64,000 nucleotides of DNA from positions 1,312,001 through 1,376,000 of the forward strand of contig OZ244052.1 of the NCBI GenBank assembly GCA_965215125.1, given 5' to 3'. Under the pieces are notes generated by a model, which was not told the DNA's origin, did not search any database, and saw only the letters and a program-made list of their open reading frames with translations. Within the stretch, counting starts at the first letter, position 1, and every line of letters begins with the position of its first letter. This document shows positions 37,942 through 55,097 of this stretch, in pieces. The position numbers and the translations under genes are program-made. This DNA is from an uncultured candidatus Porisulfidus sp. (lineage in GTDB: Bacteria > Pseudomonadota > Gammaproteobacteria > Poriferisulfidales > Oxydemutatoraceae).

Positions 37942-38619
37942 TTAAACCATAAAAGCAATCAGCGCAGCACCCATAATGCCAAGCAAAGTAAAACCGAGGA
38001 GCATTATCCCCCCTAGAACCAACGGTAGCTTCCAGTTAACAGTTTGTTTGAGATCTTTCACCGTTGATACTAACGCTTGCAGTGTCCGCATCATTTCGGT
38101 TTGTGACATATATTCGCGTTCCAATGCGATTTTGATATCCTCCGGCGAAAGTTTATCTCGCCCTTGGTACGGGCATTCATAGAGTGTGGATGACGGATGA
38201 TGAAGGCGATGAAACTCAACTGTCAAAAATCTATCCTTGTGCGGCACGATGATTGGTTTACTAGATAAATTGGTTAATCCGATAATTAACCGCCCTTCAA
38301 AGCCGGGGTCAACTTGAGGTCCGACCGTGGCGATCAGACCTTTACGTGCGTAAGAACTAGTTAATCCAAAACGGGCTGTATGTTGCAAGTCCAGTGTCAG
38401 TTTTTCGTGTGTGAGCATAATAACAAAATCCCCCGGCGTGATTTCTATAAAGCCCGTTTTGGTTAAATCTAATACTTCCTTTTTAGCTGAACTGGCTGCT
38501 TGATCACCAACTCGCAGATCGTAAGATGCCGGCTGTAGTAGCTCTTCAGAAAAAGGTTCTATCACTATGGACGAACTGTTTTTACATGTATTAAGTATGT
38601 CTTCGTTGGAGAGAATCAT
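37942..38619 (-). CDS. dCTP deaminase/dUTPase-fold protein with C-terminal helix and TM anchor
   Basis: MILSNEDI..IEPF..LQPASYDLRVG, SSYARKGL, VDPGFEG; about 25 hydrophobic residues at the C-terminus. Confidence 0.85.
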   Translation of the reverse strand: MILSNEDILNTCKNSSSIVIEPFSEELLQPASYDLRVGDQAASSAKKEVLDLTKTGFIEITPGDFVIMLTHEKLTLDLQHTARFGLTSSYARKGLIATVGPQVDPGFEGRLIIGLTNLSSKPIIVPHKDRFLTVEFHRLHHPSSTLYECPYQGRDKLSPEDIKIALEREYMSQTEMMRTLQALVSTVKDLKQTVNWKLPLVLGGIMLLGFTLLGIMGAALIAFMV

Positions 38620-39117: not shown

Positions 39118-40674
39118 ATGGCAAAAAGCGATACAAAAAAAATTGAAAATATAGAGGCGCAATTATTCAAAGTAGCCGATAAGCTACGCAAAAACATTGA
39201 TGCGGCGGAATACAAGCACATAGTACTCGGCTTGATATTTCTCAGATACATATCGGATTCTTTCGAGGCACAACATCGCGAATTAAACCGCAAATTAAAA
39301 GAAACCAAAGTAGAATTTCCACCCGACCCCGAAGATCCCGATGAATACGCGTCTAGGAATACCTTTTGGGTTCCTGAAGAGGCTCGCTGGTCGTACTTGC
39401 AAGATCGTGCCAAGCTATCGAGTATCGGCAAGGATTTAGACTCGGCAATGGAAAAGATAGAAAAAGAGAGTCCCAACCTCAAGGGTATTTTGCCTAAGGT
39501 CTATGCAAAACCGAACCTTGACAGAGCCACCCTAGGCGGTCTGATTGATTTAATCAGCGATATTGCTCTAGGTGAAGCAGCGCAGCAGTCAAGGGATATT
39601 CTAGGCAAAGTCTATGAGTATTTTTTGGGAGAGTTTGCTTTAGCGGAAGGCAAAAAGGGCGGTCAATTCTATACGCCTAAATCAATTGTGAAGCTCTTGG
39701 TTGAGATGATAGAACCTTATCACGGCAGAGTTTTTGACCCTTGCTGTGGTAGCGGCGGTATGTTTGTGATGAGCGAAAAATTTGTTGAAGAGCATAGTGG
39801 GCTAATCAAAGACATCTCTATTTACGGACAAGAGAGTAATCAAACAACCTATAGATTATGCCGAATGAATCTGGCAATTCGGAACATTGACGGTTCACAG
39901 GTGCAATGGAACAACGAAGGTTCATTTTTGAAAGATGCACACCCCGATTTGAAAGCCGACTTTATACTTGCCAATCCACCGTTTAACGATAGCGACTGGA
40001 GCGGCGACCTACTACAAGACGACCCGCGTTGGAAATACGGCACGCCGCCGGCGAGCAACGCTAACTTTGCATGGGTGCAACACTTCTTATATCACCTAAG
40101 CCCTAAAGGTGTGGCAGGCTTTGTTTTGTCCAAAGGCTCGCTAACTTCTAAAACTTCCGGCGAGGATGTTATCCGAAAAAACTTAATCGACGGCAGTTTT
40201 GTAGACTGCATCGTCAACCTGCCGACAAAATTATTCCTCAACACACAGATTCCCGCGTGCCTCTGGTTCATATCCAACAAACGATACGGCTTTAACGGCG
40301 ACAGAAGTCGTAGTGGAGAAATGCTATTTATTGACGCACGGCACTTGGGACATTTAATAAACAGACGTACCCGAGAATTTTCCGATGAAGACATCGGCAA
40401 GGTTTCCGACACCTACCACCAATGGAGAAAGACAGACGGTCAATACAAAGATGTTCCGGGTTTTTGTGCATCGGTAGCGATTGAGAGAGTAAAAGAATTG
40501 GATTATGTGCTCAGCCCGGGACGTTATGTAGGCACCGTAGAAATAGAGGACGACCATGACTTTGCCGAGCGTTTTGCAGAACTAAAAGCAGAGTTTGAAA
40601 CACAGGTGAGAGCAGAGGCTGGATTGAGCAAACGGATTTTAGAAAACTTAAACAAAATTGAATATGAGAAATAA
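39118..40674 (+). CDS. hsdM: Type I R-M methyltransferase subunit
   Basis: EYKHIVLGLIFLRYISD, GQFYTP, DPCCGSGG, NPPF. Confidence 0.97.
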   Translation: MAKSDTKKIENIEAQLFKVADKLRKNIDAAEYKHIVLGLIFLRYISDSFEAQHRELNRKLKETKVEFPPDPEDPDEYASRNTFWVPEEARWSYLQDRAKLSSIGKDLDSAMEKIEKESPNLKGILPKVYAKPNLDRATLGGLIDLISDIALGEAAQQSRDILGKVYEYFLGEFALAEGKKGGQFYTPKSIVKLLVEMIEPYHGRVFDPCCGSGGMFVMSEKFVEEHSGLIKDISIYGQESNQTTYRLCRMNLAIRNIDGSQVQWNNEGSFLKDAHPDLKADFILANPPFNDSDWSGDLLQDDPRWKYGTPPASNANFAWVQHFLYHLSPKGVAGFVLSKGSLTSKTSGEDVIRKNLIDGSFVDCIVNLPTKLFLNTQIPACLWFISNKRYGFNGDRSRSGEMLFIDARHLGHLINRRTREFSDEDIGKVSDTYHQWRKTDGQYKDVPGFCASVAIERVKELDYVLSPGRYVGTVEIEDDHDFAERFAELKAEFETQVRAEAGLSKRILENLNKIEYEK

Positions 40675-40698
40675 ACCGAAACCGTCAAGAGGGAACTC

Positions 40699-41106
40699 AT
40701 GGATAATGATTTGAGATGGAAACAACGTTTTCAAAATTTTGAAAAATCTTTTGAGGCTTTGCAGAGACGGATAAATCAATACGAGCAATATCCTAACGAC
40801 GAGGGTTCTCAAATGGCATTGTTATCATCTTTTATAATCATGTATGAACTCAGCTGGAAAGTACTCAAAGATTATTTACAAAACGAAGGTGTAGATGTGA
40901 ACAATAGTCCTAGAAATGTATTCAGAAATGCATTTCAAAACGAGCTGATATTCAAAATAGAGCCATGGATGGAGTCAATTGTCATAAGAAATGAAACGGT
41001 TCATACCTATCATGAGGATATTTTGCGAGAAGTCATTCAGTTTATTACCGAGACCTTTTATCCTATTGTTCGGGATCTGTATTTTCAACTGAAAAAAGAA
41101 CTATGA
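40699..41106 (+). CDS. HEPN toxin (HI0074 / nucleotidyltransferase substrate-binding family)
   Basis: RWKQRFQNF, YELSWKVLKDYL, SPR, RNETVHTY (R-x4-H-x-Y). Confidence 0.9.
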   Translation: MDNDLRWKQRFQNFEKSFEALQRRINQYEQYPNDEGSQMALLSSFIIMYELSWKVLKDYLQNEGVDVNNSPRNVFRNAFQNELIFKIEPWMESIVIRNETVHTYHEDILREVIQFITETFYPIVRDLYFQLKKEL

Positions 41107-42578
41107 AATACGGTTTGTCCGAAGAACAACTGGCAGAGATCTGTAATATCATTGGTTCATATCCCCAAATAGAAGCAGCGGTTATTTACGGTTCACGGGC
41201 TGACGGTGCTTATAAAGAAGCCTCGGATGTAGATATTGCTATCAAAGGAGGAAAAACCAACGAATCCCTTGCCGCAAAACTAAAATTCCATTTAGAGGAA
41301 GAAACCTACCTGCCTTTCTTTTTTGATGTCATCGCCTACAATGCCATCACCTCCACCGAACTAAAAAATCAAATCAAGGTTAAAGGCAAAACAATCTATC
41401 GGAGGGGGTGGCGTGAAGTTAAATTGGGAGATGTTGTAGAAATAATAGGCGGAGGAACACCCAGTACCAAAGAACCTAAATATTGGAATGGTGATATTCC
41501 TTGGTTAACACCCAGAGATTTATCTGATTTTAAGTGTAGATATATAGCTAAAGGTGAGAGAAATATATCCAAATTAGGATTACAAAATTCAAATGCAAAA
41601 TTACTTCCCGTAGGAGCGGTGCTTTTAACTACTAGAGCACCAGTTGGTTACTTGGCAATTGCTAGAGATGAGATTGCTGTCAATCAGGGATTTAAGGGAT
41701 TAATTGCAAACAGACATATTGATAATTTACTTTTATATTATCTGTTGAAACACAATGTTGATTATCTTAAAGCACATTCAAGTGGAACAACTTTTGGTGA
41801 GTTATCTAAAGCCTCCTTAACATCTATACCATTTTACATTCCCTCTCTTCCCGAACAAAAAGCCATTGCCGAAGTTTTGAGTAGCCTTGACGACAAAATA
41901 GATCTTTTACACCGACAAAACAAAACTCTTGAGAATATGGCACAAATCCTATTCCAAAAATGGTTTATTGAAGACGCAGACGATACATGGGAAGAGAAAC
42001 CTTTGGCTGATTTACTAGATTTTCTAGAAGGTCCAGGCATCCGTAATTGGCAATACACAGAAAAAGGGACACGCTTTATAAATATCAGATTAATACAAGA
42101 TGGCGAAATAGATGTTAAAAAATCAAACTTCATATCTGACGAAGAGGCAAATGGTAAATATAAACATTTTTCACTACAGGAAAGAGATATGGTTGTTTCT
42201 ACTTCTGGTACTTTAGGAAAAGTAGCAATCGTTCGTTCTTATCACTTGCCCTTGATGCTCAATACAAGCGTGATTAGATTTAGACCTAAAGACGGCATAA
42301 ACTATTCGTTCATGTACCAATACTTACAATCAAAGGAATTTAAGAATGAACTGGAAAGCCTAGGAAGTGGTAGCGTCCAGAAAAATTTTGGTCCAACTCA
42401 TTTGAAAATGATGAAGATGAGAATTCCTCCAGAAAGAGCTTTGAATGACTTCAGAAATCATGTTGATGACCTGTATTCAAAATTATTACAGAACTATTCT
42501 CACATTTATGAAATTGAGACCATTAAAAATACGCTTGCACCCAAATTAATGAGTGGTAAAGCGAGAGTAGTAAAATAA
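41103..42578 (+). CDS. hsdS: MNT nucleotidyltransferase fused to Type I specificity subunit HsdS
   Basis: aa 1-100 carry GS-x10-DVD and PFFFDV; then WREVKLGDV, TRD1, the EQKAIAEVLSSLDDKID spacer, TRD2 and PKLMSGKARV, all in one frame. Confidence 0.93.
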   Translation: MKYGLSEEQLAEICNIIGSYPQIEAAVIYGSRADGAYKEASDVDIAIKGGKTNESLAAKLKFHLEEETYLPFFFDVIAYNAITSTELKNQIKVKGKTIYRRGWREVKLGDVVEIIGGGTPSTKEPKYWNGDIPWLTPRDLSDFKCRYIAKGERNISKLGLQNSNAKLLPVGAVLLTTRAPVGYLAIARDEIAVNQGFKGLIANRHIDNLLLYYLLKHNVDYLKAHSSGTTFGELSKASLTSIPFYIPSLPEQKAIAEVLSSLDDKIDLLHRQNKTLENMAQILFQKWFIEDADDTWEEKPLADLLDFLEGPGIRNWQYTEKGTRFINIRLIQDGEIDVKKSNFISDEEANGKYKHFSLQERDMVVSTSGTLGKVAIVRSYHLPLMLNTSVIRFRPKDGINYSFMYQYLQSKEFKNELESLGSGSVQKNFGPTHLKMMKMRIPPERALNDFRNHVDDLYSKLLQNYSHIYEIETIKNTLAPKLMSGKARVVK

Positions 42579-42659: not shown

Positions 42660-44057
42660 ATGTCAGAAGAAATCATTCTAAAATCTCGTGAAGATAGAGA
42701 ATTCATTACTCTTACAAAAACCAAAGATAACAAATACATTTCAAAGTCTAGTCATGACCATCCGTGGGCTAGAGGTGAAATTGATAATGCCGTTTTGAGA
42801 TCTCGTATTGAACCCTGGTTAACGGCACTATTTCAATCTGAACATTTTTCTTTGTTGGTAGGTGCTGGATTGACTGAAGCAGTGCTTGGTTTGGCGCAAT
42901 CTGATGACAAACCTAAGATGCCGACACCACGGTTTAGTGAGTTTTCAGAACAGATTAACGATGCCTCAAAGGTTTCTGATGCAAACAATTTAACTACTAC
43001 CGATATTGAATTACAACTTCAAGTAGCCAACGAACTACTTATAGGATTAAAACATTTGCATCAGAGAAACGAGAATAACGAACAAATTTCTACGCTAGAA
43101 AACGAAATTACAGAGTTTCTCAAAGAATTTTCGGAATACATTTTGGAACTAGAAAATAAAATAGTAGAAGCTAAAAATAGGAAACAAGCTTTTAATTATT
43201 TAGTCAACTTCCTAACTAGTTTTGCTAGCCGTTCCGGCCCTAGAGACCGATTACAAATTTTCACCACAAATTACGACCGGGTTATTGAGATAGGTGCGGA
43301 AGTGGCAGGATTACGCTTACTTGACCGTTTTGTAGGCAGTGTTTCTCCTATTTTTAGGTCTTCAAGATTGAATGTTGATATGCACTACAATCCGCCCGGT
43401 ATACGGGGAGAACCTCGCTATTTAGAAGGTGTTATCCACTTCACTAAATTGCATGGTTCTATTGATTGGAAGCAGTTAAATAAAGATATTCGTCGGATAG
43501 GTTTGCCGTTTGGTGCAAAAAGCCTTGATCCCTATTTAGAAAACTCTAACAAATTAATGATCTATCCGAACGCCGCCAAAGATAAAGCAACAGTCGTTTA
43601 TCCTTATGTAGAAATGTTTAGAGATTTCGCTGCTTCTATATGTAGGCCGAACAATACATTGGTTACATACGGTTATAGTTATAACGATGACCATATCAAC
43701 CGAATAATAGAGGATATGCTTACTATACCGTCCACTCATTTAGTCATTATTTCGTATGGTAATAAAGATAAAAAGATTAAAAGCATGTATAAAGAGATTG
43801 GCAGACCAGCTCAAATCACACTTCTCATAGGGAAGGATTTAGCTGGATTAAAACCACTGGTGGATAATTATCTGCCTAAAGCGGCGATTGACCGTATTAC
43901 TTCTCGCATGGTGGATTTACTCAAATCGCGTTTAGAAACCGAAAGTAATTCTGAAATCGAAACTGCAAAGTTTATCAAAGAGACACCCGAGCCTAATTTA
44001 GATCGCAATGAAAGCGAAACATCAAATACTATAAATGACGACGACCTCGATTTTTGA
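42660..44057 (+). CDS. SIR2-like NADase of a Sir2-HerA defence system
   Basis: LLVGAG, FTTNYD, KLHGSIDW, GYSYNDDHIN; overlaps the herA start. Confidence 0.9.
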   Translation: MSEEIILKSREDREFITLTKTKDNKYISKSSHDHPWARGEIDNAVLRSRIEPWLTALFQSEHFSLLVGAGLTEAVLGLAQSDDKPKMPTPRFSEFSEQINDASKVSDANNLTTTDIELQLQVANELLIGLKHLHQRNENNEQISTLENEITEFLKEFSEYILELENKIVEAKNRKQAFNYLVNFLTSFASRSGPRDRLQIFTTNYDRVIEIGAEVAGLRLLDRFVGSVSPIFRSSRLNVDMHYNPPGIRGEPRYLEGVIHFTKLHGSIDWKQLNKDIRRIGLPFGAKSLDPYLENSNKLMIYPNAAKDKATVVYPYVEMFRDFAASICRPNNTLVTYGYSYNDDHINRIIEDMLTIPSTHLVIISYGNKDKKIKSMYKEIGRPAQITLLIGKDLAGLKPLVDNYLPKAAIDRITSRMVDLLKSRLETESNSEIETAKFIKETPEPNLDRNESETSNTINDDDLDF

Positions 44058-46239
44058 ACAATTAGAATCTTTATGCATTGGGACGGTAGAGTTTGTATCC
44101 CCAGATGAAATAAAAGTCTCCTTAAACCTAGAAGCTCCCGAATCACTAGCCTTAAATGCAGAAAATCCTATAACTTTTCCTAAAATTAACAACTATTTGC
44201 TTATTCCCAACAATGAGGGATATTTAGTCGGACAAATAGAATGGTTAGCAAGTGAACGAGTACCCTATACAAAACGCAAGGATATACAAAAGGATTCTGG
44301 ATTGGTTGACCTGCCGTATCCTTCAAGAAAAATGAGCCTTAATCCTGTTGGGATACTAAACGAGATAAGAGGCGAGGCAGATAAAGAGAAAAAGGATTTT
44401 GAATTTAAGCGTGGCGTTAATGTATTTCCATCGGTGGGAGATAATGTTTTACTTCCTACGCAAGAGCAACTTCATGCAATTATAGTATCGGGAGAAGATA
44501 AACAAGTAAGTATTGGCATTAGCCCACTTGTAGATGGTGCTGAAGTATGCGTTAATCCAGATCGTTTATTTGGTCGACACCTCGCTGTTTTAGGCAATAC
44601 AGGAAGTGGCAAATCCTGTTCTGTAGCAGGACTTATCCGCTGGTCATTGGAAGCAGTTTCCAAAAAGGAGAAAAAACCGAATGCTCGTTTTATCGTGTTA
44701 GATCCAAACGGAGAATATTCCAAAGCCTTTGGATCCGATAATAGCAATGATTCTGTAGTTAAAGCACGAATATTTCAGGCGGAACCGAATGGCAAAAATA
44801 AAAAATTACAAGTACCTCTTTGGTTTTTGAATAGTTCCGAATGGGCTGCTTTTGCTCAAGCTAGTGAAAAAATGCAAAAGCCTACACTTGTGGATGCACT
44901 TAGTAATGTGAGGAGTGGACGCACGGAGTTCACTAGGAATAAAGGTCATGAGATGAGAAATTTTCTTAGAACAATTGTTACAATTATCCATGCAGCAAAA
45001 AATTCTGGCGATCCCTGGGGGAAGTTTCCTAAACCTAAAGGCTTCCTTGAGAAGATAAAGAAATGGAATGAGGGAGGGTTAGAAGAAGATGGTGTATTTT
45101 CAGAGAATCAAAAGAAAGCAATGCATATGCTAAAAGAATATATTGATGGGCTTGTGGAAGAGCGTCCTATAGAAAAAAGTACTAATTATGATTTTAAAAA
45201 ACATCAAATAGACTGTCTCTTAGAATTAGCCCAGCAGGCTTATTATGCTTTTGGTGGTAAAGACGAAGATCTCTTAGCAATAGGTGCGGATATCCCAAAG
45301 CCATTTTTCAAAGAATCATTTATTAGAAGTGTTGAGGCAAGTGCGGAAATGTTAAAAGCAGTTGAATATGTAGAACCTTTGCTTATGCGTATTCGTGCCA
45401 TGCTAGGCGACCAAAGAATGAAATCAATTATGGATGACTCTGGTAGTAAAATTACACTTGCTCAATGGCTAAAAGATTATATTGGTGGAGATGAAAATGA
45501 AAGTAACATAACAATCATTGATTTGTCATTAATTCCTGCTGATGTAATCCATATTATTACTGCTGTTATTGCGAGGATGGTTTTTGAAGCCTTGCAACGT
45601 TATAGAAAAATTCATACCGAGAAGAAAACTTTACCGGTGGTTATGGTTATGGAAGAAGCCCATACATTCGTGAAACGCTATAAAGACGATATTGAAAATA
45701 GAGGCTCAGCTACTATTTGCTGTCAAATATTTGAAAAAATTGCCCGAGAAGGTCGTAAATTTGGATTAGGGTTAGTTATTTCATCACAACGTCCTTCTGA
45801 GTTGTCTCCTACTGTTCTTTCTCAATGCAATACGTTTTTACTCCATCGTATTAGCAACGACAGAGATCAAGATCTAGTAAAGCGATTCATTCCCGAAAGT
45901 CAAAAAGGAGTACTTAGAGAACTACCCGTACTTCCTTCGCAACAAGCAATTTTAATGGGTTGGGCTTCTGAACTTCCTTTGCTGGTAAAAATGCACTATT
46001 TGCCGGAAGAACAGCAACCACAATCGGATGATCCAGATCTTTGGAAAGTTTGGACTCGAGAAAATGACAGAAAAGTAGACTGGGACGAAATCGCTGATGA
46101 TTGGGTCAAGCCGGAAGAGGAAACCAATTATGAGGCAGAAAGCACCAATCAAACAGAAAATTTTGATGAAAAGAAAATTGATTCTGAGACAGACAGTACT
46201 AATCAAATAAAAAGTCCTGATGATGACATCCCATTTTAA
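44035..46239 (+). CDS. herA: HerA/DUF87 ATPase of a Sir2-HerA defence system
   Basis: HLAVLGNTGSGKS, DPNGEY, EEAH, REGRKFG..SQRPSE. Confidence 0.92.
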   Translation: MTTTSIFEQLESLCIGTVEFVSPDEIKVSLNLEAPESLALNAENPITFPKINNYLLIPNNEGYLVGQIEWLASERVPYTKRKDIQKDSGLVDLPYPSRKMSLNPVGILNEIRGEADKEKKDFEFKRGVNVFPSVGDNVLLPTQEQLHAIIVSGEDKQVSIGISPLVDGAEVCVNPDRLFGRHLAVLGNTGSGKSCSVAGLIRWSLEAVSKKEKKPNARFIVLDPNGEYSKAFGSDNSNDSVVKARIFQAEPNGKNKKLQVPLWFLNSSEWAAFAQASEKMQKPTLVDALSNVRSGRTEFTRNKGHEMRNFLRTIVTIIHAAKNSGDPWGKFPKPKGFLEKIKKWNEGGLEEDGVFSENQKKAMHMLKEYIDGLVEERPIEKSTNYDFKKHQIDCLLELAQQAYYAFGGKDEDLLAIGADIPKPFFKESFIRSVEASAEMLKAVEYVEPLLMRIRAMLGDQRMKSIMDDSGSKITLAQWLKDYIGGDENESNITIIDLSLIPADVIHIITAVIARMVFEALQRYRKIHTEKKTLPVVMVMEEAHTFVKRYKDDIENRGSATICCQIFEKIAREGRKFGLGLVISSQRPSELSPTVLSQCNTFLLHRISNDRDQDLVKRFIPESQKGVLRELPVLPSQQAILMGWASELPLLVKMHYLPEEQQPQSDDPDLWKVWTRENDRKVDWDEIADDWVKPEEETNYEAESTNQTENFDEKKIDSETDSTNQIKSPDDDIPF

Positions 46240-46376: not shown

Positions 46377-46516
46377 TGCCGGATAAGAAAACACCTACAA
46401 AATAAGGTGTAAATTTATCTTATCAAAGTGTCGTTTAATCTATAATGTGCTTTTACCTATTGCTTTTAGCACCGAATATAATTTCAATACTCCGGAAGTT
46501 TTTAATATACAGAAAA

Positions 46517-47410
46517 ATGGATGACAAGGGAAAATATCTAGCCAGAATACTCTTTAAGCTAAAAATACACGAAACCGAAGGAAAATCTTTTGAAGATTTA
46601 TTTGCTCACATTATGAACTATTCAGAACCGGATTTTCAAAGGATAAAACCATGGGGCAGTATTGGTGATCGCAAAAATGATGGTTATATTCCTTCACAAG
46701 GAATATATTTTCAGGTCTATGCTCCGGAAGACATACGCAAATCTCTCGGTAATGCAATTAAGAAGCTGGAATCCGATTTTGCCGGTCTTTTAGAAAAGTG
46801 GAAAGAAATCAAAGCATATTATTTTGTTATCAACGATAAATATCATGGAGTGCCGGCACATCTTTTACAAGCCATACAAAAAATTGCCAATGATCATGAG
46901 ATAAAAGCAGAGGTTTGGGGTGTTAATAAACTGGAGGATTTAGTCTTCTCTTCTTTAGATGATGACCAAATATTAAGTATTACCGGTTCATTTCCTAATC
47001 CTGAAGAAATACACTTAGACTATTCTGTTTTAGACGAAGTGATAACACATCTGATGAAAATAGATATTAGCGACATTCAGGATGGTGACATTAAATATCC
47101 GAATTGGGGTGAGAAGATCGAATTTAATGGTTTATCGGAGGCAGTGAAAAGATACTTGGAGCAGGGTTTTTTACATGTTGCCGAACTGGATGAATGTCTT
47201 GACAACAATAGTAATTTTTTTGCGGAACAGGTCAAGGATCGGGTCAGAGAAATTTATATCAATAAAGCCAGAGAGTTTTCGGGAGACAAATTATTTATGA
47301 AAATAATGAATACTATTAGTCATAGGCAGGAACAACTATTCCAATTTGCAGCGATTATAATAATGGCTAAGTATTTTGAAATTTGTGATATTTTTAAGAA
47401 GCCTGAATGA
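46517..47410 (+). CDS. lmuA: Lamassu/ABC-three-component effector: restriction-endonuclease-fold domain plus CTD
   Basis: FEDLF...GDRKNDG...FQVYAP nuclease-like motif; C-terminal YFEICDIF; probable start MDDKGK. Confidence 0.78.
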   Translation: MDDKGKYLARILFKLKIHETEGKSFEDLFAHIMNYSEPDFQRIKPWGSIGDRKNDGYIPSQGIYFQVYAPEDIRKSLGNAIKKLESDFAGLLEKWKEIKAYYFVINDKYHGVPAHLLQAIQKIANDHEIKAEVWGVNKLEDLVFSSLDDDQILSITGSFPNPEEIHLDYSVLDEVITHLMKIDISDIQDGDIKYPNWGEKIEFNGLSEAVKRYLEQGFLHVAELDECLDNNSNFFAEQVKDRVREIYINKAREFSGDKLFMKIMNTISHRQEQLFQFAAIIIMAKYFEICDIFKKPE

Positions 47411-47649
47411 TATTACCTACAAAAAATATTAATTTTTCCAAGTCCCTATTAGGGTTCGGTTCCTATGTGTTGTCACTGCTTGATAGTTCCCAAAGTATTG
47501 ATGATTTATGGCAACAATATCGCAAGGACTATAAGAAGAAGAGATATCCGGGAAAACATACCTTTGATAATTTGATTATGACATTGATTTTTTTATATGT
47601 TGCAGGTTGTATTCTTGAACAGGACGGGCTTATAAAAAGATGCGTTTAA
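47407..47649 (+). CDS. lmuC: ABC-three-component middle component
   Basis: 80 aa; MILPTK..SLL..G, IDDLW, LIFLY..G; overlaps both neighbours. Confidence 0.78.
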   Translation: MILPTKNINFSKSLLGFGSYVLSLLDSSQSIDDLWQQYRKDYKKKRYPGKHTFDNLIMTLIFLYVAGCILEQDGLIKRCV

Positions 47650-49379
47650 TTTCAATATCGGCAAACCAAGATAGCTTCAAAAAAATAGACTTTAATCCAT
47701 CGGGTGCTAGCTTTATTATTGCCGAACAGAAAGACCCCGGCCAGAGCGATAAAAAGAAAACCTACAATGGTGTCGGTAAATCTCTTTTAGTTGCGTTAAT
47801 TGATTTTTGCCTGGGAGCCGGTGCGAGTAGTGGCATCACTAAAACATTAAGTTCGTGTGATGACTTAAAAGATTGGAAGTTTACCTTGAAGATAAGTATA
47901 AAGGGTAAGCCCTACATTATTACAAGATCGGTTGATAATCATAAATCAATTGAGTTGAACGATGAAACTTTGAAACTGACAGAATTTCACCAACGAATGC
48001 AAGAGCTATGTTTTGATATAGAGGAAGGTTTCAAGTTCTTGACTTTTCGTTCTTTGTTACCGTTTTTCCTGAGACCGTCAAAAACTTCATATACAAATTA
48101 TGATAAACCTCAGGCATCTTACACACCGTATCAAAAACTACTTTACAACGCTTTTTTATTAGGCTTGGATGTCTTTTTAGCCGATAAGAAAAAAGTACTA
48201 AAAGACGATTTAACGACACGAAGAAATAGCTTACGAAACACAGAAAAGGATCCCATCATAAGAGGATTTTTCGGTCACAATCAAAATGTGAGTGATGATT
48301 ATCTATTACTTCTTAGGGATATAGAGGAAAAAATTAAAAAATTGGAGGAAGATCTAAAAAATTACAGGGTTGCCAAGGATTATTATCAGCGTCAGGAAGA
48401 AGCGGATCAGTTGAAAAAATTGATTGATGAGAAGCAAAAACAAATCTATCTACATAAAAGTACCATAAAGCGGATCGATCAGAGTTTACGGTTTGAAGTT
48501 GATATAGATCAAAAGGACATTAAAAAGATATACGAGGAATCTAAAAAGGTATTTCAAGTTGAAGTAAAAAAGAGGTTATCGGATTTAGAAAAATTTTATA
48601 CGGATTTGAAGACTAATCGTACAAAAAGATTAGCGGAGCAAAAACGGTCAATTATGAACGAGTTAGAAAAGTTAGAAGAAGAGGCGGCAAAATTACAAGC
48701 ACAATTTGACGAAACCTTAGCATTTCTCGGGTCACATCGCGCATTGGATGTTTTTGTTGAAACAAACAAACAATTAAGTGAGCTAAAACAAAAAAAAGAA
48801 AAGTTGGTTTCTTATCAAGAATTTCAGAAAAAATACAAAAGAGAAATAGAAAAATTAAAACAAAGTTTAAGGGACGAAAACGGCAAAACAACCGAATACT
48901 TGGAAATAAACGAATCTTTTTTAGAATCTATTAATAACGATTTTAGGACTTTGGCAAAGAAATTTTACCCCGATGAACTAGCCGGTATCACGATTGTCAA
49001 TAACGAAGGGGAAAATCAAATTAGATATAACATAGAAGCAAAAATACAATCGGATTCTTCCGATGGAATTAATAGTGTCAAATTGTTTTGTTATGACTTA
49101 TGTGTGCTATTCGGTGCTAACAATCATCATATAGATTTTATTTTTCATGACAGCAGGTTATTCAGCGATATTGATGAAACACATTGTGAGGTGTTGTTTG
49201 ATATTGTTCGCGATAAATTTAAGGATAAGCAATATATAGCGAGTATTAATCAGAAGGACTTAATAACCTTAGCTGAACCGGTTCAGGCTTTTATAAGACA
49301 AAACACGGTTTGTAAACTAAACGATGAATCCGAAGAAGGTAAGTTATTAGGTAGGCGGGTAGAATTGGAATACGACTAG
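47640..49379 (+). CDS. lmuB: SMC-like ABC ATPase (DUF2326-type)
   Basis: Walker A NGVGKS, long coiled coil, SSDG signature, FIFHDS, QYIASIN. Confidence 0.85.
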   Translation: MRLISISANQDSFKKIDFNPSGASFIIAEQKDPGQSDKKKTYNGVGKSLLVALIDFCLGAGASSGITKTLSSCDDLKDWKFTLKISIKGKPYIITRSVDNHKSIELNDETLKLTEFHQRMQELCFDIEEGFKFLTFRSLLPFFLRPSKTSYTNYDKPQASYTPYQKLLYNAFLLGLDVFLADKKKVLKDDLTTRRNSLRNTEKDPIIRGFFGHNQNVSDDYLLLLRDIEEKIKKLEEDLKNYRVAKDYYQRQEEADQLKKLIDEKQKQIYLHKSTIKRIDQSLRFEVDIDQKDIKKIYEESKKVFQVEVKKRLSDLEKFYTDLKTNRTKRLAEQKRSIMNELEKLEEEAAKLQAQFDETLAFLGSHRALDVFVETNKQLSELKQKKEKLVSYQEFQKKYKREIEKLKQSLRDENGKTTEYLEINESFLESINNDFRTLAKKFYPDELAGITIVNNEGENQIRYNIEAKIQSDSSDGINSVKLFCYDLCVLFGANNHHIDFIFHDSRLFSDIDETHCEVLFDIVRDKFKDKQYIASINQKDLITLAEPVQAFIRQNTVCKLNDESEEGKLLGRRVELEYD

Positions 49380-49448: not shown

Positions 49449-52400
49449 ATGCTTTCCCTCTACGAATCCGAAGTTGAAGAGTGGGTGATAGAGCTTCTGC
49501 AGGAGCAGGGGTATAGCTATCTTTCACCGGAGGAGCAGGAGCGGGCGCGTGGTGGTTTTTCGGAGGTTGTTTTCCGAGAGCATCTAAAGGATGCCGTCAC
49601 TCGCCTTAATCCCGATATTCCCGAAGATGAGCAGGAATATGCGCTACGAGAAGTTTTAGGATTATCCAGTCAGAGTATGATTGAAAACAACGAGACTTTT
49701 CATCGGTACTTGATCGAAGGTTTCTCGTTGGAATACCAAAGAGAAGGCGACACGGTCGGTGGTAAGGTGATGTTGGTTGATTTTGAAAACCCGATGAACA
49801 ACGATCTCATCGTTTGCAATCAGTATACCGTCGTAGGGAATAAAAATAAGACAAAGATACGCCCCGATGTGGTTTTATTAATCAACGGTTTACCTTTGGT
49901 TGTGATTGAACTCAAAAACCCTACCGATGAGAAGGCCACGGTTAAAAAAGCATATACTCAGTTACAGAATTATAAAAAGGCTGCGCCGAGTTTGTTTTAC
50001 TACAACGGGGTTTTGGTTGCGTCGGACGGTCTGGATGCTAGAGCGGGTTCGCTCACGGCGGGCATGGATCGTTTTATGGCATGGAAAACCGTTGACGGTG
50101 TCAGGGAGGATAAAAGCACGACACCACAGGTAGAGACGCTTATTAAAGGGATGCTTCGTCCCGATGTGCTGCTTAACCTTATAAAGCAGTTTACGGTTTT
50201 TGAAAAATCGCAAGCCGAAACCAGCAAAAAAATTGCTGCATACCATCAGTATTACGCAGTGTGCAAGGCAGTGGAGTCAACCATTCGGGCAACTGCGACA
50301 GGAGTTTCCGAAGCAGAGAAGGAAGCACCTGAGGACTCCGATTTGCCGATGGTTAACAGTCAACCGGCGGGTGATAGAAAAGTCGGTGTTGTTTGGCACA
50401 CGCAAGGCAGCGGCAAATCGCTTTCTATGGTTTTTTATGCCGGCAAGTTGATGGGAGATGCGCGTATGAAGAATCCGACCTTGCTCGTGCTTACCGATAG
50501 AAATGATCTTGACGACCAGTTGTTCGGGGCATTTGCGGCGAGTCGGCAATTACTAATAGAAGAACCGGTGCAAGCGCAATCTCGCGATCACTTAAAAAAA
50601 CTTTTGCAAACACAAGGCGGTGGCATCGTTTTTACAACGATTCAAAAATTTTCTCCCGAAGAGGATAGAGAGCAATTCGAGTTACTTTCGGGGCGTGAAA
50701 ACATCGTTGTTATTGCCGATGAGGCGCATCGCTCTCAATACGGCTTCAAAGCGATAACCGGCATAAAAGATAATCGGGTATCTATACGCTATGGTTTTGC
50801 TAAGTATCTGCGGGATGCCTTACCGAACGCCTCTTTTATCGGTTTTACCGGCACACCGATTGAGAGAGCGGACATTTCAACACGGGCAATTTTCGGTAAT
50901 TACATTGACATTTATGATATTCAACAATCGGTGGAAGATGGGGCAACTATTCCCATTTACTATGCATCGCGTCTAGCGCATGTGCATCTGAAGCCGGAGG
51001 AAATGCAAAAGCTGGATGATGAGGTTGAACAGATTACCGAAGATCAGGAGTTCACCGCTACGGAGAAAGCGAAGGCAAAATGGGCGCAAATGGAAGCGAT
51101 CGTAGGTAATGAGGAACGGCTGAAAGTAGTTGCACAAGACATCGTTGAGCATTTTGAGGAACGACAAAAAGCACTTGAAGGCAAAGGCATCATTGTTGCA
51201 ATGAGCCGGCGTATTGCCGTTGCGCTATACGACATGATTACTAAGTTTCGTCCGGATTGGCACGATACCGATCTTGAGAAGGGGCAGATAAAGGTCATTA
51301 TGACTTCTAATTCAAGCGACCCGTCAAGTTATCAGCCGCATCGTACAACCAAGAGGCAAAAGAAAGAATTGGGGGATCGGTTTAAGGATCCCACGGATTC
51401 TTTGAAGCTGGTTATCGTGCGAGATATGTGGTTGACCGGTTTTGATGCACCGTCTTTACATACGATGTATATAGACAAACCGATGCGTGGGCATAATCTT
51501 ATGCAGGCGATTGCGCGCGTCAACAGGGTCTATAAAAATAAACCCGGCGGACTTGTGGTGGATTACATCGGAATTGCTCACGACTTAAAGCAGGCACTTG
51601 CGATTTATACGAATAGTGGTGGGCGAGGGCAACCGGCATTGGAACAGGAAACCGCAATTGCAACGATGATAGAAAAATACGAAATCGTTGTGCAGTTGTT
51701 CAATGGTTTTGACTACAAGCGATACTTCGCTGCCGATACTGGAGAAAAACTGACCATCATTTTGGAGGCACAGGAGCATATACTCAATTTGGACGATGGC
51801 AAGAAAAGGTATATAGAACAACTCTCGGTACTAGCCAAAACATTTGCGCTTTCGGTGCCTAGCGACGAGGCAGCGAAAATCAGAGATGAGCTAGGCTTTT
51901 TTGAAGCGGTGAAAGCTAGACTAATAAAACTAGAATCGTCGGATAACGGGAAAAGCGATGCCGAAATAGAAACAGCAATTAAACAAATCGTTGATAAAGC
52001 GATTATGACCGACGAGGTTATCGACATTTTTGATGCAGCGGGAATCAAGAAGCCCGACATTTCTATTCTCTCCGACGAGTTTCTGGAGGAAGTGCGAGGC
52101 ATGCAACATAAAAATCTAGCCATAGAACTTTTGAAAAAAATTCTTAACGATGAAATCAAAGCCAGGATTAAAAAGAATTTTATTCAAGGTAGGAAACTTT
52201 CGGAGATGTTGGATGCTGTGATTAAGCGGTATCGGAATAATTTGTTAACCACGGCACAAGTCATTGAAGAGCTTGTAAGCCTTGCCAAAGAGATAACAGA
52301 TGCCGATAAACGAGGTGAGAGATATGGGCTTTCGCAAGAGGAATTGGCGTTTTATGATGCGCTTGCCGATAATGACAGTGCAAAAAGGGTGCTGGGAGAT

Positions 52401-52619
52401 GACACACTGCGAGATATTGCAAGAATTTTGGTTGAAAAGGTGAAGAAGGGAGCTACTATTGATTGGACTATTAGAGAAAGCGTGCAAGCGGGGCTTCGTG
52501 TTGCCGTGAAAGGCGTGCTGCGTAAATACGGTTATCCGCCCGACAAACAAGAGACTGCAACACAAAATGTTTTGAAGCAAGCAGAGAGTTTTGCCGACGA
52601 ATGGGCTTCCGATCTGTAG
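49449..52619 (+). CDS. hsdR: Type I R-M restriction subunit
   Basis: RPD..LINGLPL..IELK nuclease motif, HTQGSGKS, DEAH, FTGTP, LTGFDAP, QAIARVNR. Confidence 0.98.
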   Translation: MLSLYESEVEEWVIELLQEQGYSYLSPEEQERARGGFSEVVFREHLKDAVTRLNPDIPEDEQEYALREVLGLSSQSMIENNETFHRYLIEGFSLEYQREGDTVGGKVMLVDFENPMNNDLIVCNQYTVVGNKNKTKIRPDVVLLINGLPLVVIELKNPTDEKATVKKAYTQLQNYKKAAPSLFYYNGVLVASDGLDARAGSLTAGMDRFMAWKTVDGVREDKSTTPQVETLIKGMLRPDVLLNLIKQFTVFEKSQAETSKKIAAYHQYYAVCKAVESTIRATATGVSEAEKEAPEDSDLPMVNSQPAGDRKVGVVWHTQGSGKSLSMVFYAGKLMGDARMKNPTLLVLTDRNDLDDQLFGAFAASRQLLIEEPVQAQSRDHLKKLLQTQGGGIVFTTIQKFSPEEDREQFELLSGRENIVVIADEAHRSQYGFKAITGIKDNRVSIRYGFAKYLRDALPNASFIGFTGTPIERADISTRAIFGNYIDIYDIQQSVEDGATIPIYYASRLAHVHLKPEEMQKLDDEVEQITEDQEFTATEKAKAKWAQMEAIVGNEERLKVVAQDIVEHFEERQKALEGKGIIVAMSRRIAVALYDMITKFRPDWHDTDLEKGQIKVIMTSNSSDPSSYQPHRTTKRQKKELGDRFKDPTDSLKLVIVRDMWLTGFDAPSLHTMYIDKPMRGHNLMQAIARVNRVYKNKPGGLVVDYIGIAHDLKQALAIYTNSGGRGQPALEQETAIATMIEKYEIVVQLFNGFDYKRYFAADTGEKLTIILEAQEHILNLDDGKKRYIEQLSVLAKTFALSVPSDEAAKIRDELGFFEAVKARLIKLESSDNGKSDAEIETAIKQIVDKAIMTDEVIDIFDAAGIKKPDISILSDEFLEEVRGMQHKNLAIELLKKILNDEIKARIKKNFIQGRKLSEMLDAVIKRYRNNLLTTAQVIEELVSLAKEITDADKRGERYGLSQEELAFYDALADNDSAKRVLGDDTLRDIARILVEKVKKGATIDWTIRESVQAGLRVAVKGVLRKYGYPPDKQETATQNVLKQAESFADEWASDL

Positions 52620-52660: not shown

Positions 52661-54187
52661 TTATTCAGAGGTATACAAGATATTGTTATTCTCTAGATAT
52701 TCCAAAAACTCTACAATGGTTTTGGGAGAAATGAGCAGATTATCTGTTTGTTTCAGGAAGTTAATCTGGCGTATAGTGTCCTTAAAAATACTGGGTGCAA
52801 CAAAGTAACACATTGATTTTTCTACTTTCGTGTCAAACTTTTCTAAGTGTCTAGCAATCGGCCACACTTCCGCCATAGTTTGGGTTCTCCCCTCGGACAT
52901 TGTTACCTCAATTAAGACTCCGTTTACATCTTCAAAGCATTCAATGTCCCCGGTGTCCCTGGAGCCTTTTGCGGTTGATGTCGGTATACCTTCATCATCA
53001 ATAGGATAATTTGGTATTACTTGTATATTCGGGAATTTTGATTTCACTGCCAATGCCGTCAAAAACTCAAACCGTATTGGACCTGATAGATATTTCAAAG
53101 TTTCATGTTTCGTTAATTTTCTACTTGATAGTATTAGCATTTCTTTTTTGATTGTCTCCCAAGTATGTATATCAACCCACTTTTTCAAGAATTCATCGCG
53201 CTCGGAAGCTGAAACAGTTTTTGGTTTAGACGAAATTAAGTTTTTATCGATAGTGGAGATATACTCAAAATAACTTTCTTCTGTATCGTATTTTTTATAC
53301 TCGGAATAGTTTTTCAGAATATAATTTATTTTTACTTGCTCGTTTTTGTTGATATCGATAAACCTTCCTCCACCGCGCAAAGAGATAAGGCCGGTTAATC
53401 GCATTTTTCGGATAAACTCGTCGGGATAATCTACTATGATAGATTTATCGTTCCGTCTAATATCTCTGCCTTCCATGATTTCATTCCGACAAATTCTCAT
53501 AATTATTTCCCTGCTCGGAGAATATCGAAAGTCTTGCCGTAATCTTTTAATTCTCCGATATAACGTCTCTGCATCGTTATTTTTCCAATAAATTACCAGT
53601 GGTAATTCTAGTTTTGAAATGCCCGCGCCATTGTATTCATCGTCGGCGTTTAATTTAGTGATTACTCGGAGCAATAAGACCAAAGGTACATTTTCATTCA
53701 ATACCCTCCGAAAAGGACTATTTGCTTGGTATTTCACAAAAGCATTCAAGAAAGCCTGTTGCTCAAATTCAGGATATTTGTTGTCAACAAGTTTTAATCC
53801 TACCTTTGAGAATCTTATTTTCTTTCCGGTTCGGTAAAATACAAATCCTAGTTCTTTAGAAAATTTGAACCAAGTATCAAAACGAGATGGCCAGCCTTTA
53901 CTAAACCCTGCTTCTTTATGATTTTGCGGATTGTCTCGTAGTATCTTTTTAACTTCTTTATCGGACAGAGGGTTATTTTCTCTCATTTTTTGTTTTATAT
54001 TTTGGGGTAATCTAATCGGTTGGTATAAACCAATTCTGATAATTTCCCCGACAATTTCTTCTGCTAATTTGTCGTCAAGAATTTTTCCGTTATAGTCCTT
54101 TAAGACATTGAGAAAGTCTTTCAATCGCTCGGGGCTTCTAATCGTTGTTGTGAACAATAATGGTTTGTATTCGGCTTGTCTCGGCAT
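52661..54187 (-). CDS. AlwI-family Type IIS restriction endonuclease
   Basis: FTTTIRSPER, RKMRLTGLI, DDEGIPTSTA..GDIEC...IEVT...PIARHL...FVAPSI. Confidence 0.85.
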   Translation of the reverse strand: MPRQAEYKPLLFTTTIRSPERLKDFLNVLKDYNGKILDDKLAEEIVGEIIRIGLYQPIRLPQNIKQKMRENNPLSDKEVKKILRDNPQNHKEAGFSKGWPSRFDTWFKFSKELGFVFYRTGKKIRFSKVGLKLVDNKYPEFEQQAFLNAFVKYQANSPFRRVLNENVPLVLLLRVITKLNADDEYNGAGISKLELPLVIYWKNNDAETLYRRIKRLRQDFRYSPSREIIMRICRNEIMEGRDIRRNDKSIIVDYPDEFIRKMRLTGLISLRGGGRFIDINKNEQVKINYILKNYSEYKKYDTEESYFEYISTIDKNLISSKPKTVSASERDEFLKKWVDIHTWETIKKEMLILSSRKLTKHETLKYLSGPIRFEFLTALAVKSKFPNIQVIPNYPIDDEGIPTSTAKGSRDTGDIECFEDVNGVLIEVTMSEGRTQTMAEVWPIARHLEKFDTKVEKSMCYFVAPSIFKDTIRQINFLKQTDNLLISPKTIVEFLEYLENNNILYTSE

Positions 54188-54191
54188 AATT

Positions 54192-55097
54192 TCAATAGTT
54201 GGTAATCAAGACTTCTTTAATTTTTTTCCGGGTATTGTTGTGATAGTTGATGTAATTGCTTTGAATATCATGGACTTGGTATTTTTTCATCCATTCAATC
54301 AGTAAATCATTTTTTCTTCCGTTGTAATGAGTAATATTTGACAAAGCAAATTTAATGCTCTTTCTATTTAATGTATCAATTAAATCAAGCAAGTTTTTTT
54401 CTTCTTTTGAGTTCCATAACTTATTGTATTCGCTTGAAGCGATAAGGTAAGGAGGGTCAAGGTAGACGAAGTCATTTTTGGTAAATTCTTTTTTCTCAAA
54501 AAATCGCCTAAAGTCTTTAGTCGAGAACTGTATTTTTTTATTTTTTACAAAATCAAAATAATTATTAAGTGCTTTTACAACATTTTTATTAAAATCGACA
54601 TTTCCAACAGGCAAATTGAATGAACCACCGCCATTGAAACGTAACATCCTATTAAATCCGTATATCAATAGCACATACAAAATAAGAGGATCATTTTTTC
54701 GATTTTTGTTCACATCGTTTTTTAATTTTTCATATCCTTCTTTGTTGAATTTAGAATAATAAGTCTTCTTAAACTCTTTTTTTAGAGCATCGGGCACAAT
54801 ATCTTTTTTGTAGGAATGAGATAATTTGTATTTGAAGACGATTTTTTCAACTTTGTCAAAAAACTTTCCCGTATTTTCTGCATTCGAAATTAAGTATTCA
54901 TGAATATTAACAAGGTGTTTATTTATATCATTCAAAAAATACTTCTTTGCGTTGATATTCAGGAAAACCGTACCACCACCAACAAATAATTCATAAAAGT
55001 TTTCTATTTTCTCGGGAAACAAATTTAGCAGTTGTTCCATTAGCCGATATTTATCCCCGACATAAAAGAGAGGTGATCTATTTATTTTCTGTTCCAT
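54192..55097 (-). CDS. Dam/D12-class N6-adenine methyltransferase (second strand)
   Basis: SPLFYVGDK, ELFVGGG, FNLPVG, YLDPPY, EVLITNY. Confidence 0.93.
   Translation of the reverse strand: MEQKINRSPLFYVGDKYRLMEQLLNLFPEKIENFYELFVGGGTVFLNINAKKYFLNDINKHLVNIHEYLISNAENTGKFFDKVEKIVFKYKLSHSYKKDIVPDALKKEFKKTYYSKFNKEGYEKLKNDVNKNRKNDPLILYVLLIYGFNRMLRFNGGGSFNLPVGNVDFNKNVVKALNNYFDFVKNKKIQFSTKDFRRFFEKKEFTKNDFVYLDPPYLIASSEYNKLWNSKEEKNLLDLIDTLNRKSIKFALSNITHYNGRKNDLLIEWMKKYQVHDIQSNYINYHNNTRKKIKEVLITNY

Follow-up and report, generated by a model that had tools for sequence, protein, structure and literature searches.

A Type I restriction-modification (R-M) operon in the 64,000-nucleotide window analysed here (positions 1,312,001 to 1,376,000 of contig OZ244052.1, assembly GCA_965215125.1, from an uncultured gammaproteobacterium, candidatus Porisulfidus sp.) encodes a small HEPN protein and, directly after it, a specificity subunit HsdS that carries a complete MNT nucleotidyltransferase domain as its N-terminal part. 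With moderate confidence we read this locus as a type VII-like HEPN/MNT toxin-antitoxin pair of the HI0074/HI0073 subfamily, housed in a Type I operon, in which the antitoxin enzyme is made only as the N-terminal 102 residues of HsdS and the HEPN protein is AMPylated on Tyr104. It is an old proposal that toxin genes within restriction operons couple immunity with suicide. To our knowledge, PrrC is almost the sole worked example of such coupling, and it relies on non-covalent binding. The fusion described here recurs in many unrelated bacteria, so that a suicide module may be hard-wired to the restriction complex, and it offers a simple genetic handle on the coupling of immunity with suicide.

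The architecture is the one that an earlier note on this DNA had outlined from the sequence alone. A HEPN gene with the R-x4-H-x-Y motif (RNETVHTY) lies between hsdM and the HsdS domains. Its stop codon overlaps the start of a 491-residue open reading frame (ORF) by ATGA, an arrangement of translational coupling, and this ORF begins with a complete MNT domain (GS-x10-DVD) and continues into a full HsdS with two target recognition domains (TRDs). The sequence, the Pfam matches (one stretch of PF18765 and two of PF01420) and the fold comparisons agree on these points. The MNT domain joins HsdS with essentially no linker and, as had been claimed, with no stop and no in-frame ATG; inspection of the sequence near the junction found no in-frame GTG either. 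After M1, no Met occurs in the fusion ORF up to the ENMAQ segment of the central helix. Unfused HsdS proteins of this family mostly begin with M-x-x-W, about three residues ahead of the conserved Trp that corresponds to W103, which places the join right where a normal HsdS starts, with both partners kept whole.

The three junction codons CGG AGG GGG include a GGAGG (41401-41405) just ahead of W103, which may be a relic of a former hsdS ribosome-binding site turned into codons. The sole in-frame alternative start near the junction is a TTG (L108, 41424-41426), located 18 nt past the GGAGG. A separate HsdS product from an internal start was considered and judged unlikely, since this TTG falls within the conserved KLGDV and is poorly spaced from the GGAGG.

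An AlphaFold2 model of the fusion, built on a 75-row alignment, reached a mean predicted local distance difference test (pLDDT) of 93.3 and a predicted template modelling score (pTM) of 0.83. Junction residues 91-110 have pLDDT of 91-92 and form no low-confidence linker, figures that express the model's own confidence and are no measurement. The MNT part contains helices at residues 7-18, 54-66 and 85-94 with strands between them; no helix follows the last strand, past residue 100, and the domain is therefore of the kind that has no alpha-4 helix at its C-terminus. In Foldseek comparisons it superposes on the MNT antitoxin of Legionella pneumophila (8xeo_B, target-normalised template modelling score (TMt) 0.93, root-mean-square deviation 1.4 A; 8xeh_E, TMt 0.90) and on HI0073 of Haemophilus influenzae (1no5, TMt 0.78). 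The HsdS part matches the S subunit of Methanocaldococcus jannaschii (1yf2_A) with E-values of 7.2e-63 by sequence and 7.2e-29 by fold, and 7vs4 and 2y7c are further fold matches. Its two conserved coiled-coil helices occupy residues 249-290 and 444-484 of the model. Both Type I partners, hsdM and hsdR, are present on either side. A scan of the genome turned up no other HsdS with two TRDs: the fusion gives two Methylase_S matches, and a further, weaker one stands singly at 664 kb. A complex prediction for the fusion with two HEPN copies scored 0.02 against a mark of 0.32, which counts neither for nor against binding.

The fusion is genuine. In three of the other four genomes of the genus, hsdM and HEPN are followed by this frame without interruption; in the fourth (G002, 95% complete), the HEPN-MNT pair is solo and HsdS is a protein of its own. 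A contig of run X6, which comes from another study and is about 96% identical, spans 40600-41999 without an indel at the junction. Absence of the fusion from reads or relatives, which the earlier note had named as grounds for dropping the idea, thus did not occur. Together with the fusions described below (33 distinct loci and 58 or more representative clusters), these data practically exclude an assembly or sequencing artefact, or a one-off read-through. Run X1 is identical across the junction but is a possible source of the window, and is therefore not independent support. Only X6 and X1 bridge the junction: in runs X2 and X5 no single contig crosses it with 31 letters on each side, and their contigs end at 41399-41443, at the onset of the TRD1 variants. 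In a minor variant of X2, positions 41443-41847 (TRD1) are swapped for 343 unrelated letters, with the MNT part and the central helix unchanged; its depth is about 11, versus about 311-415 for the main-allele contigs there. A similar pattern is seen among the congeners, where the MNT domain is 84-98% identical and the HsdS part 54-60% in two of three and 88% in the third. TRDs that turn over in this way, next to an MNT domain that stays constant, are what is usually seen when a specificity subunit is functional.

Recurrence of the MNT plus Methylase_S architecture with a consistently placed HEPN gene was the check proposed in the earlier note, and its outcome was positive: a PF08780-type HEPN gene is directly upstream in all 33 distinct fused loci, which represent more than ten phyla. 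These loci comprise 26 from genome contigs (three of them the congeners), six from sampled genomes and the window itself. At the protein level, Polbeta (PF18765) and Methylase_S (PF01420) occur together in 21 of the best 120 HsdS relatives. A search with the MNT domain alone against 1.84 billion cluster representatives (50% identity) gave 2294 matches, of which the best 150 were analysed. Among these 150, 74 proteins are longer than 140 residues, all 74 with Polbeta and 58 with Methylase_S, so that at least 58 clusters are fused, and the first protein of stand-alone MNT size appears only at rank 47. Residues G30, S31, R32, S41, D42 and D44 of the catalytic motif are invariant in three sets, namely the 21 fusions, the 74 representatives and 27 DNA-verified fusions; the third Asp (D75) is likewise invariant in the last of these sets.

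The genome-contig scan, run with a single 135-residue query and reaching close relatives only, yielded 51 confirmed loci, 26 of them with an intact fusion; its patterns were taken from the fused form, and this count is therefore biased towards fusions. The titles of the 51 loci name Gammaproteobacteria, Elusimicrobia, Leptonemataceae, Desulfobacteraceae, Peptococcaceae, Brocadiaceae, Bacteroidota, Chloroflexota, Nitrospirota, Bdellovibrionales, Melioribacteraceae and others. With the window included, all 27 fused ORFs match Polbeta and Methylase_S, and all 27 upstream ORFs match PF08780. Within the 26 fused loci, hsdM is found upstream in 25 (the exception, L057, lies at a contig end), an hsdR homologue downstream in 21, and the 4-nt overlap between HEPN and fusion in 23. 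The 25 non-fused loci include 13 HEPN-MNT pairs that stand alone, with no R-M gene seen up to 7 kb away, two pairs in MNT-then-HEPN order, and three loci (L086, L090, L093) that matched the query only in the N-terminal part of HsdS (residues 101-135). Three others are weak or partial (L087 and L089, residues 1-44 or 1-42 only; L088, an MNT ORF seen with no HEPN) and four are truncated or decayed (L050; L061, without HEPN; L071, with a frameshift; L075, at a contig end).

Two genome samples not selected by fusion, 41 relatives and 400 genomes of the class, added six fusions (L006, L016, L021, L024, L025 and L094), each with HEPN upstream. Their MNT domains are distant, at 29-37% identity over the aligned N-termini. 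The R-x4-H-x-Y motif is present in 30 of the 33 fusion-linked HEPN proteins (24 of 26 from genome contigs, five of six from sampled genomes, and the window). In plasmid and phage collections, 88 plasmid records and one phage record match the MNT part, none covers at least 80% of the 135-residue query, and no fused form was found.

The biochemistry of the pair is suggested by its relatives. In addition to its PF08780 (NTase_sub_bind) match of 5.6e-31, the window HEPN matches PF01934 (HepT-like) at 1.4e-6, and it exceeds the NCBIfam cut-off for TIGR01987, the HI0074 family (69.3 versus 55.8 bits). The HepT_toxin and MntA_antitoxin equivalogs (NF047751 and NF047752) were not reached, with 24 and 41.2 bits against cut-offs of 60. 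By these profile matches the pair belongs to the HI0073/HI0074 subfamily and is related to HepT/MntA without being its equivalog. Among solved structures, the HEPN protein is closest to the HEPN toxin of L. pneumophila (8xdj_A, E 6.1e-19; 118 residues aligned without gaps), with which R97, H102 and Y104 align at R98, H103 and Y105, and R72 at R73, the key Arg for contact with MNT. In the 27 fusion-linked HEPN proteins that include the window's, conservation of R97, H102 and Y104 is 90% or higher. A single monomer of the L. pneumophila MNT attaches to a tetramer of HEPN via helix alpha-2 and the next loop and poly-AMPylates Y105, and the absence of the alpha-4 helix leaves the MNT C-terminus free (PMC11586414). 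A monomeric MNT with a free C-terminus could carry a C-terminal passenger such as HsdS. The claim of the earlier note that MNT neutralises HEPN by AMPylating the Tyr of RX4HXY thus stands for the closest characterised homologue.

When compared with known systems, the L. pneumophila type VII module (8XDJ, 8XEH, 8XEO) is the most similar, sharing a PF08780/HI0074 HEPN, an MNT without alpha-4, the HEPN-then-MNT order, the RX4HXY motif with its acceptor Tyr and the MNT-contact Arg. It differs in that its MNT is a free protein of 108 residues, for which the available portion of PMC11586414 mentions no R-M context, whereas the window MNT is the N-terminal domain of HsdS. The HepT/MntA pair of Shewanella oneidensis (SO_3166/SO_3165) and the HEPN/MNT pair of Aphanizomenon flos-aquae also have an RX4HXY toxin that is neutralised by Tyr (oligo)AMPylation through a GSx10DxD enzyme (PMC11586414). 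However, the MNTs of these pairs have a C-terminal alpha-4 helix that docks on HEPN, in place of which the window protein has HsdS; their usual gene order is MNT first (PMC3710099), as opposed to HEPN first here; and the NCBIfam equivalog cut-offs are missed by the window pair. Both halves of the window pair fall in the same subfamily as HI0073/HI0074 of H. influenzae (1NO5, 1JOG; 1jog_A E 4.4e-4), which are two separate small proteins, unlike the fusion.

On the R-M side, PrrC with the Type IC system EcoprrI provides the precedent of a HEPN-superfamily RNase gene inside an hsdMSR operon (PMC3710099, PMC3506569, 10.1101/2024.01.29.577857). The idea of an R-M complex that keeps an RNase harmless is shared, and for the window it is a proposal only. 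PrrC is a large ABC-ATPase-HEPN protein, non-covalently held and without an antitoxin enzyme, whereas the window HEPN is a single domain of 135 residues with no ATPase, and thus has no N-terminal ABC ATPase joined to a C-terminal anticodon-nuclease HEPN. Its link to the R-M complex is the covalent fusion of an RNase-modifying enzyme to HsdS. Ordinary Type I HsdS proteins (for example 1YF2), in operons with embedded defence genes, resemble the window protein in their two TRDs, two conserved helices, hsdM and hsdR flanks and cargo between hsdS and hsdR, but do not carry a further complete enzyme domain in front. More generally, defence genes embedded in Type I operons are a known arrangement (10.1101/2024.01.29.577857), and it has been noted that HEPN-T genes form clusters with R-M operons and that a fusion of HEPN-M proteins to MNT, a REase or methylase domains is occasionally seen (PMC3710099).

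Under the reading we favour, HEPN and MNT::HsdS would be translated as a coupled pair via the ATGA overlap. The MNT domain would act as a monomer, as in L. pneumophila, and would use ATP to AMPylate Tyr104 of a HEPN oligomer, which would become inactive; both the Tyr AMPylation and the RNase toxicity of this HEPN we infer from the characterised pairs. The same polypeptide would also assemble with HsdM and HsdR as their specificity subunit, with one antitoxin domain per restriction/methylation complex. As the antitoxin is part of HsdS, neutralisation of newly made HEPN would require ongoing synthesis and integrity of the HsdS polypeptide. The likeliest pay-offs would be stabilisation of the R-M operon (addiction) and a second-line growth arrest if hsdS expression or the S subunit fails.

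The fusion could also be neutral and tolerated, an account that we rate as possible though not probable: a HEPN-MNT cassette would have entered the slot between hsdM and hsdS and lost the MNT stop, after which both halves would work as if alone and the R-M complex would have no influence on the toxin. This fits with the monomeric action and free C-terminus of an MNT without alpha-4 (PMC11586414) and with the M-x-x-W starts of unfused HsdS, by which nothing is lost on joining. It also fits with sister MNTs in different states (L006 fused and L007 split; L024/L026) and with the in-frame Met (MVVKW) that L006 retains at its junction. Moreover, the main fused clade mostly travels with one Type I family, so that whole-operon transfer could explain much of the spread. 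Against mere tolerance, the two samples not selected by fusion contain MNT fused to HsdS in 11 genomes (the window's counted once) and adjacent but separate in only two (L007 and the decayed L028), and the fusion persists in over ten phyla, in which the TRDs turn over but the catalytic residues are invariant. Even with independent halves, the supply of antitoxin would still depend on hsdS expression, since no other MNT is encoded in the operon.

Phylogeny also speaks against the neutral account, as it points to more than one event of fusion or fission. In a FastTree tree of 243 MNT domains, 25 changes between fused and solo states were counted under strict labels, and well-supported branches force at least six. 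A tree of 69 rows with DNA-verified state, from which two long-branch rows (L063_o12 and L040_m) were left out, needs 11 such changes. In the approximately unbiased (AU) test, the best tree that keeps all fused MNTs together is rejected (log-likelihood difference 179.7, p 4.9e-55). The partner genes give independent support, since fused forms were found with two different HsdM families: L006, L025 and the split L007 lie beside HsdM proteins only 23-25% identical to that of the window. We conclude that the MNT/HsdS join appears to have formed or broken several times, in a number that is uncertain.

A number of observations weigh against our favoured reading of an antitoxin supplied through HsdS. 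First, the genome holds another HEPN-MNT pair (C1:856974-857661), free-standing and from the same Pfam families, which might supply antitoxin in trans. Second, S43 and I46 of the window HEPN occupy the positions of the Mg2+ ligands Q44 and E47 of L. pneumophila HEPN. In the latter, Q44A and E47A abolish RNase activity and toxicity, whereas R98A and H103A of the RX4HXY motif retain toxicity (PMC11586414), so that an intact R-x4-H-x-Y motif alone is no proof of an intact toxin. Since S43/I46 replace residues that are essential in the closest characterised homologue, the toxin of the window, or of the genus, may be weakened, although the family overall looks active, with Q and E both kept in 19 of 26 other fusion-linked HEPN proteins, such as those of the L058 and L059 type. 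The S/I pair is shared by two of three congener loci (L044, L045), and K/E is found in L043 and in run X6. The description of this HEPN as intact in the earlier note is accordingly right for the motif and doubtful for the toxin.

The remaining adverse points concern the history and counting of the fusion. In the 69-row tree, strongly supported branches alone force no more than one origin; the MNT alignment has only about 100 columns, some branches are long, L021_fus above all, and some labels are doubtful (L075 as solo, at a contig end; L050 and L071 as fused, being truncated or frameshifted). Solo pairs (L014, L070, L073, L074) nest within the main fused clade, so that the fusion is sometimes lost or the pair leaves its R-M context. 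Decay products also occur, namely L048 and L064 (HEPN without the motif), L054 (a HEPN of 69 residues), L061, L071 and P0136, and the genome-contig count of fusions carries the query bias mentioned above.

P0136, a metagenome protein of 324 residues, consists of MNT, a 45-residue spacer, the first ~50 residues of HsdS and the last 122 of HsdR. A fusion of MNT to the HsdR C-terminal domain, as a second mode of tethering, was considered for it and ruled out; a deletion from the hsdS start into the hsdR end makes it a decay remnant of such an operon.

The interpretation of the locus as a guarded restriction complex, first raised in the earlier note, goes further and is unlikely in our view. It would have MNT activity follow the state of the M2S/R2M2S complex, so that anti-restriction proteins (DNA mimics, Stp-like peptides) or HsdS degradation would stop AMPylation, fresh HEPN would cleave RNA and the infection would abort, by analogy with PrrC/EcoprrI. 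The antitoxin is indeed covalently tied to a subunit targeted by DNA mimics, the modelled junction, without a low-confidence linker, is such that the halves could influence each other, a Type I enzyme that keeps an RNase latent has a precedent (PMC3710099, PMC3506569), and the operon is a stack of defence systems. However, the present sequence and model data give no sign of allostery or of a trigger. AMPylation is covalent, so that modified HEPN would stay inactive and release would need new synthesis or de-AMPylation, and the window HEPN lacks the two residues needed for toxicity in its nearest characterised homologue. In its broadest form, which we hold to be rather unlikely, the Type I complex would be the keeper of a suicide RNase: MNT would AMPylate HEPN only while HsdS is made and properly assembled, and phage mimics or peptides that jam M2S, or loss of HsdS, would let fresh HEPN stop translation. 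If true, this guard function would amount to the coupling of immunity and suicide known from PrrC/EcoprrI, but with covalent wiring, and would have arisen several times.

Loss of the Mg-site residues in the window HEPN could alternatively point to an exapted two-subunit nucleotidyltransferase, with HEPN as its substrate-binding partner and an R-M subunit, DNA ends or a phage protein as its target. The family name in Pfam and NCBIfam (nucleotidyltransferase substrate binding protein) reflects this older view, and domestication of HEPN as a regulatory partner of nucleotidyltransferases has been described (PMC3710099). We consider it very improbable here, as 30 of 33 partners retain the complete R-x4-H-x-Y motif with its acceptor Tyr, 19 of 26 other fusion-linked HEPN proteins retain both Mg-site residues, and the nearest characterised pair is a toxin-antitoxin system.

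The component parts of the locus are thus known: Type I HsdS, HEPN-MNT pairs of the HI0073/HI0074 type, and the embedding of defence genes in Type I operons, of which PrrC/EcoprrI is the worked case. The new element is the covalent union of the antitoxin with HsdS, a real and recurrent variant that is apparently undescribed. The earlier note knew of no characterised system of this architecture, and none was found in the literature searched; a full-text search returned no description of an MNT-HsdS fusion, although the architecture supplements of PMC3710099, which lay outside that search, could mention it. Databases name the fused proteins only 'restriction endonuclease subunit S', so that the embedded toxin-antitoxin pair is easily overlooked in surveys of defence systems and toxin-antitoxin systems.

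The operon as a whole extends over ~14 kb with all genes on the + strand, and its GC content of 0.33-0.43 compares with ~0.50 in the flanks. The gene order is hsdM, HEPN, the 491-residue ORF, a SIR2-HerA pair, an ABC-3C-like trio and hsdR (Table 1).

Table 1. Features of the Type I R-M operon and of its HEPN and MNT::HsdS genes (positions within the window)
Feature	Position	Strand	Evidence
hsdM, Type I methyltransferase subunit, 518 residues	39118-40674	+	PF02384 N6_Mtase 1.3e-106; PF12161 HsdM_N 5.3e-26; PADLOC MTase_I 5.1e-182
HEPN gene, 135 residues, HI0074 / NTase_sub_bind subfamily, putative type VII toxin	40699-41106	+	PF08780 5.6e-31; TIGR01987 69.3 bits
Codons S43-S44-F45-I46 of HEPN; S43/I46 at positions of L. 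pneumophila Mg2+ ligands Q44/E47	40825-40836	+	two alignments
R-x4-H-x-Y motif RNETVHTY (within VIRNETVHTY): R97, H102, Y104	40987-41010	+	sequence; ungapped alignment to 8xdj
ATGA overlap of HEPN stop and fusion ORF start (translational coupling)	41103-41106	+	sequence
MNT::HsdS fusion ORF, 491 residues, start MKYGLS	41103-42578	+	PF18765 Polbeta and PF01420 Methylase_S
MNT domain, residues 1-102, without C-terminal alpha-4 helix	41103-41408	+	PF18765 residues 12-101, 3.4e-14; AlphaFold2; Foldseek
MNT catalytic motif G30 S31-x10-D42 V43 D44, sequence YGSRADGAYKEASDVDIAIKG	41190-41234	+	invariance in fusion sets
Junction R100 R101 G102 / W103, KGKTIYRRG then WREVKLGDV, no stop	41400-41411	+	sequence; W103 invariant in fusions
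Complete HsdS: TRD1 41409-41846; central conserved helix 41847-41972; TRD2 41973-42431; C-terminal conserved helix 42432-42554	41409-42578	+	PF01420 in two stretches, 3.9e-51
SIR2-HerA defence pair, cargo between hsdS and hsdR, outside the fusion	42660-46239	+	PADLOC SIR2 8.1e-149, HerA 8.4e-242; Pfam SIR2_2, DUF87
ABC-3C-like three-gene system, embedded (CTD10 protein, 80-residue MC6 middle component, DUF2326 ATPase)	46445-49379	+	CTD10 6.9e-11; DUF2326 8.5e-27; MC6 9e-15; PADLOC candidate PDC-M68A/B
hsdR, restriction/translocase subunit, 1056 residues, last operon gene	49449-52619	+	HSDR_N, SWI2_SNF2, T1R_D3-like, T1RH-like_C; PADLOC REase_I E 0

Variations on the fused architecture were noted in several genomes. 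A tandem order of hsdM, HEPN, MNT, HEPN and MNT::HsdS, with an unfused pair ahead of the fused one, occurs in L049, L053, L063, L021 and L094, which suggests that the gap between hsdM and hsdS is a repeated landing site for HEPN-MNT cassettes. In L094 (3539-7606, - strand; genome G005, from the family of the window's organism), a 1355-residue ORF combines MNT and HsdS (Methylase_S) with TIR and a STAND NTPase, and is preceded by HEPN, MNT, HEPN and hsdM; the proximal HEPN has no strict R-x4-H-x-Y motif. Either HsdS is fused here to defence domains at both ends, or a stop may have been lost between hsdS and a TIR-STAND gene. At L015 (1351-3027, + strand; genome G109), an MNT relative with 58% identity is fused to an N6_N4 DNA methyltransferase, with no HEPN gene upstream. 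Its motifs are degenerate (DS for GS, DVT for DVD), which gives it the look of an inactive MNT domain retained by a different modification enzyme.

Upstream of the operon, on the opposite strand, lies a gene for a dCTP-deaminase-like protein (37942-38619, - strand; PF22769 4.4e-22; no PADLOC match), of which the last ~30 residues are strongly hydrophobic and form only a candidate membrane segment. On the other side, the operon adjoins an AT-rich (GC 0.30-0.34) Type II-like R-M system (52661-56901, - strand), which comprises an AlwI-family endonuclease, a D12 adenine methyltransferase and a second D12 methyltransferase with an N-terminal RadC-like JAB domain.

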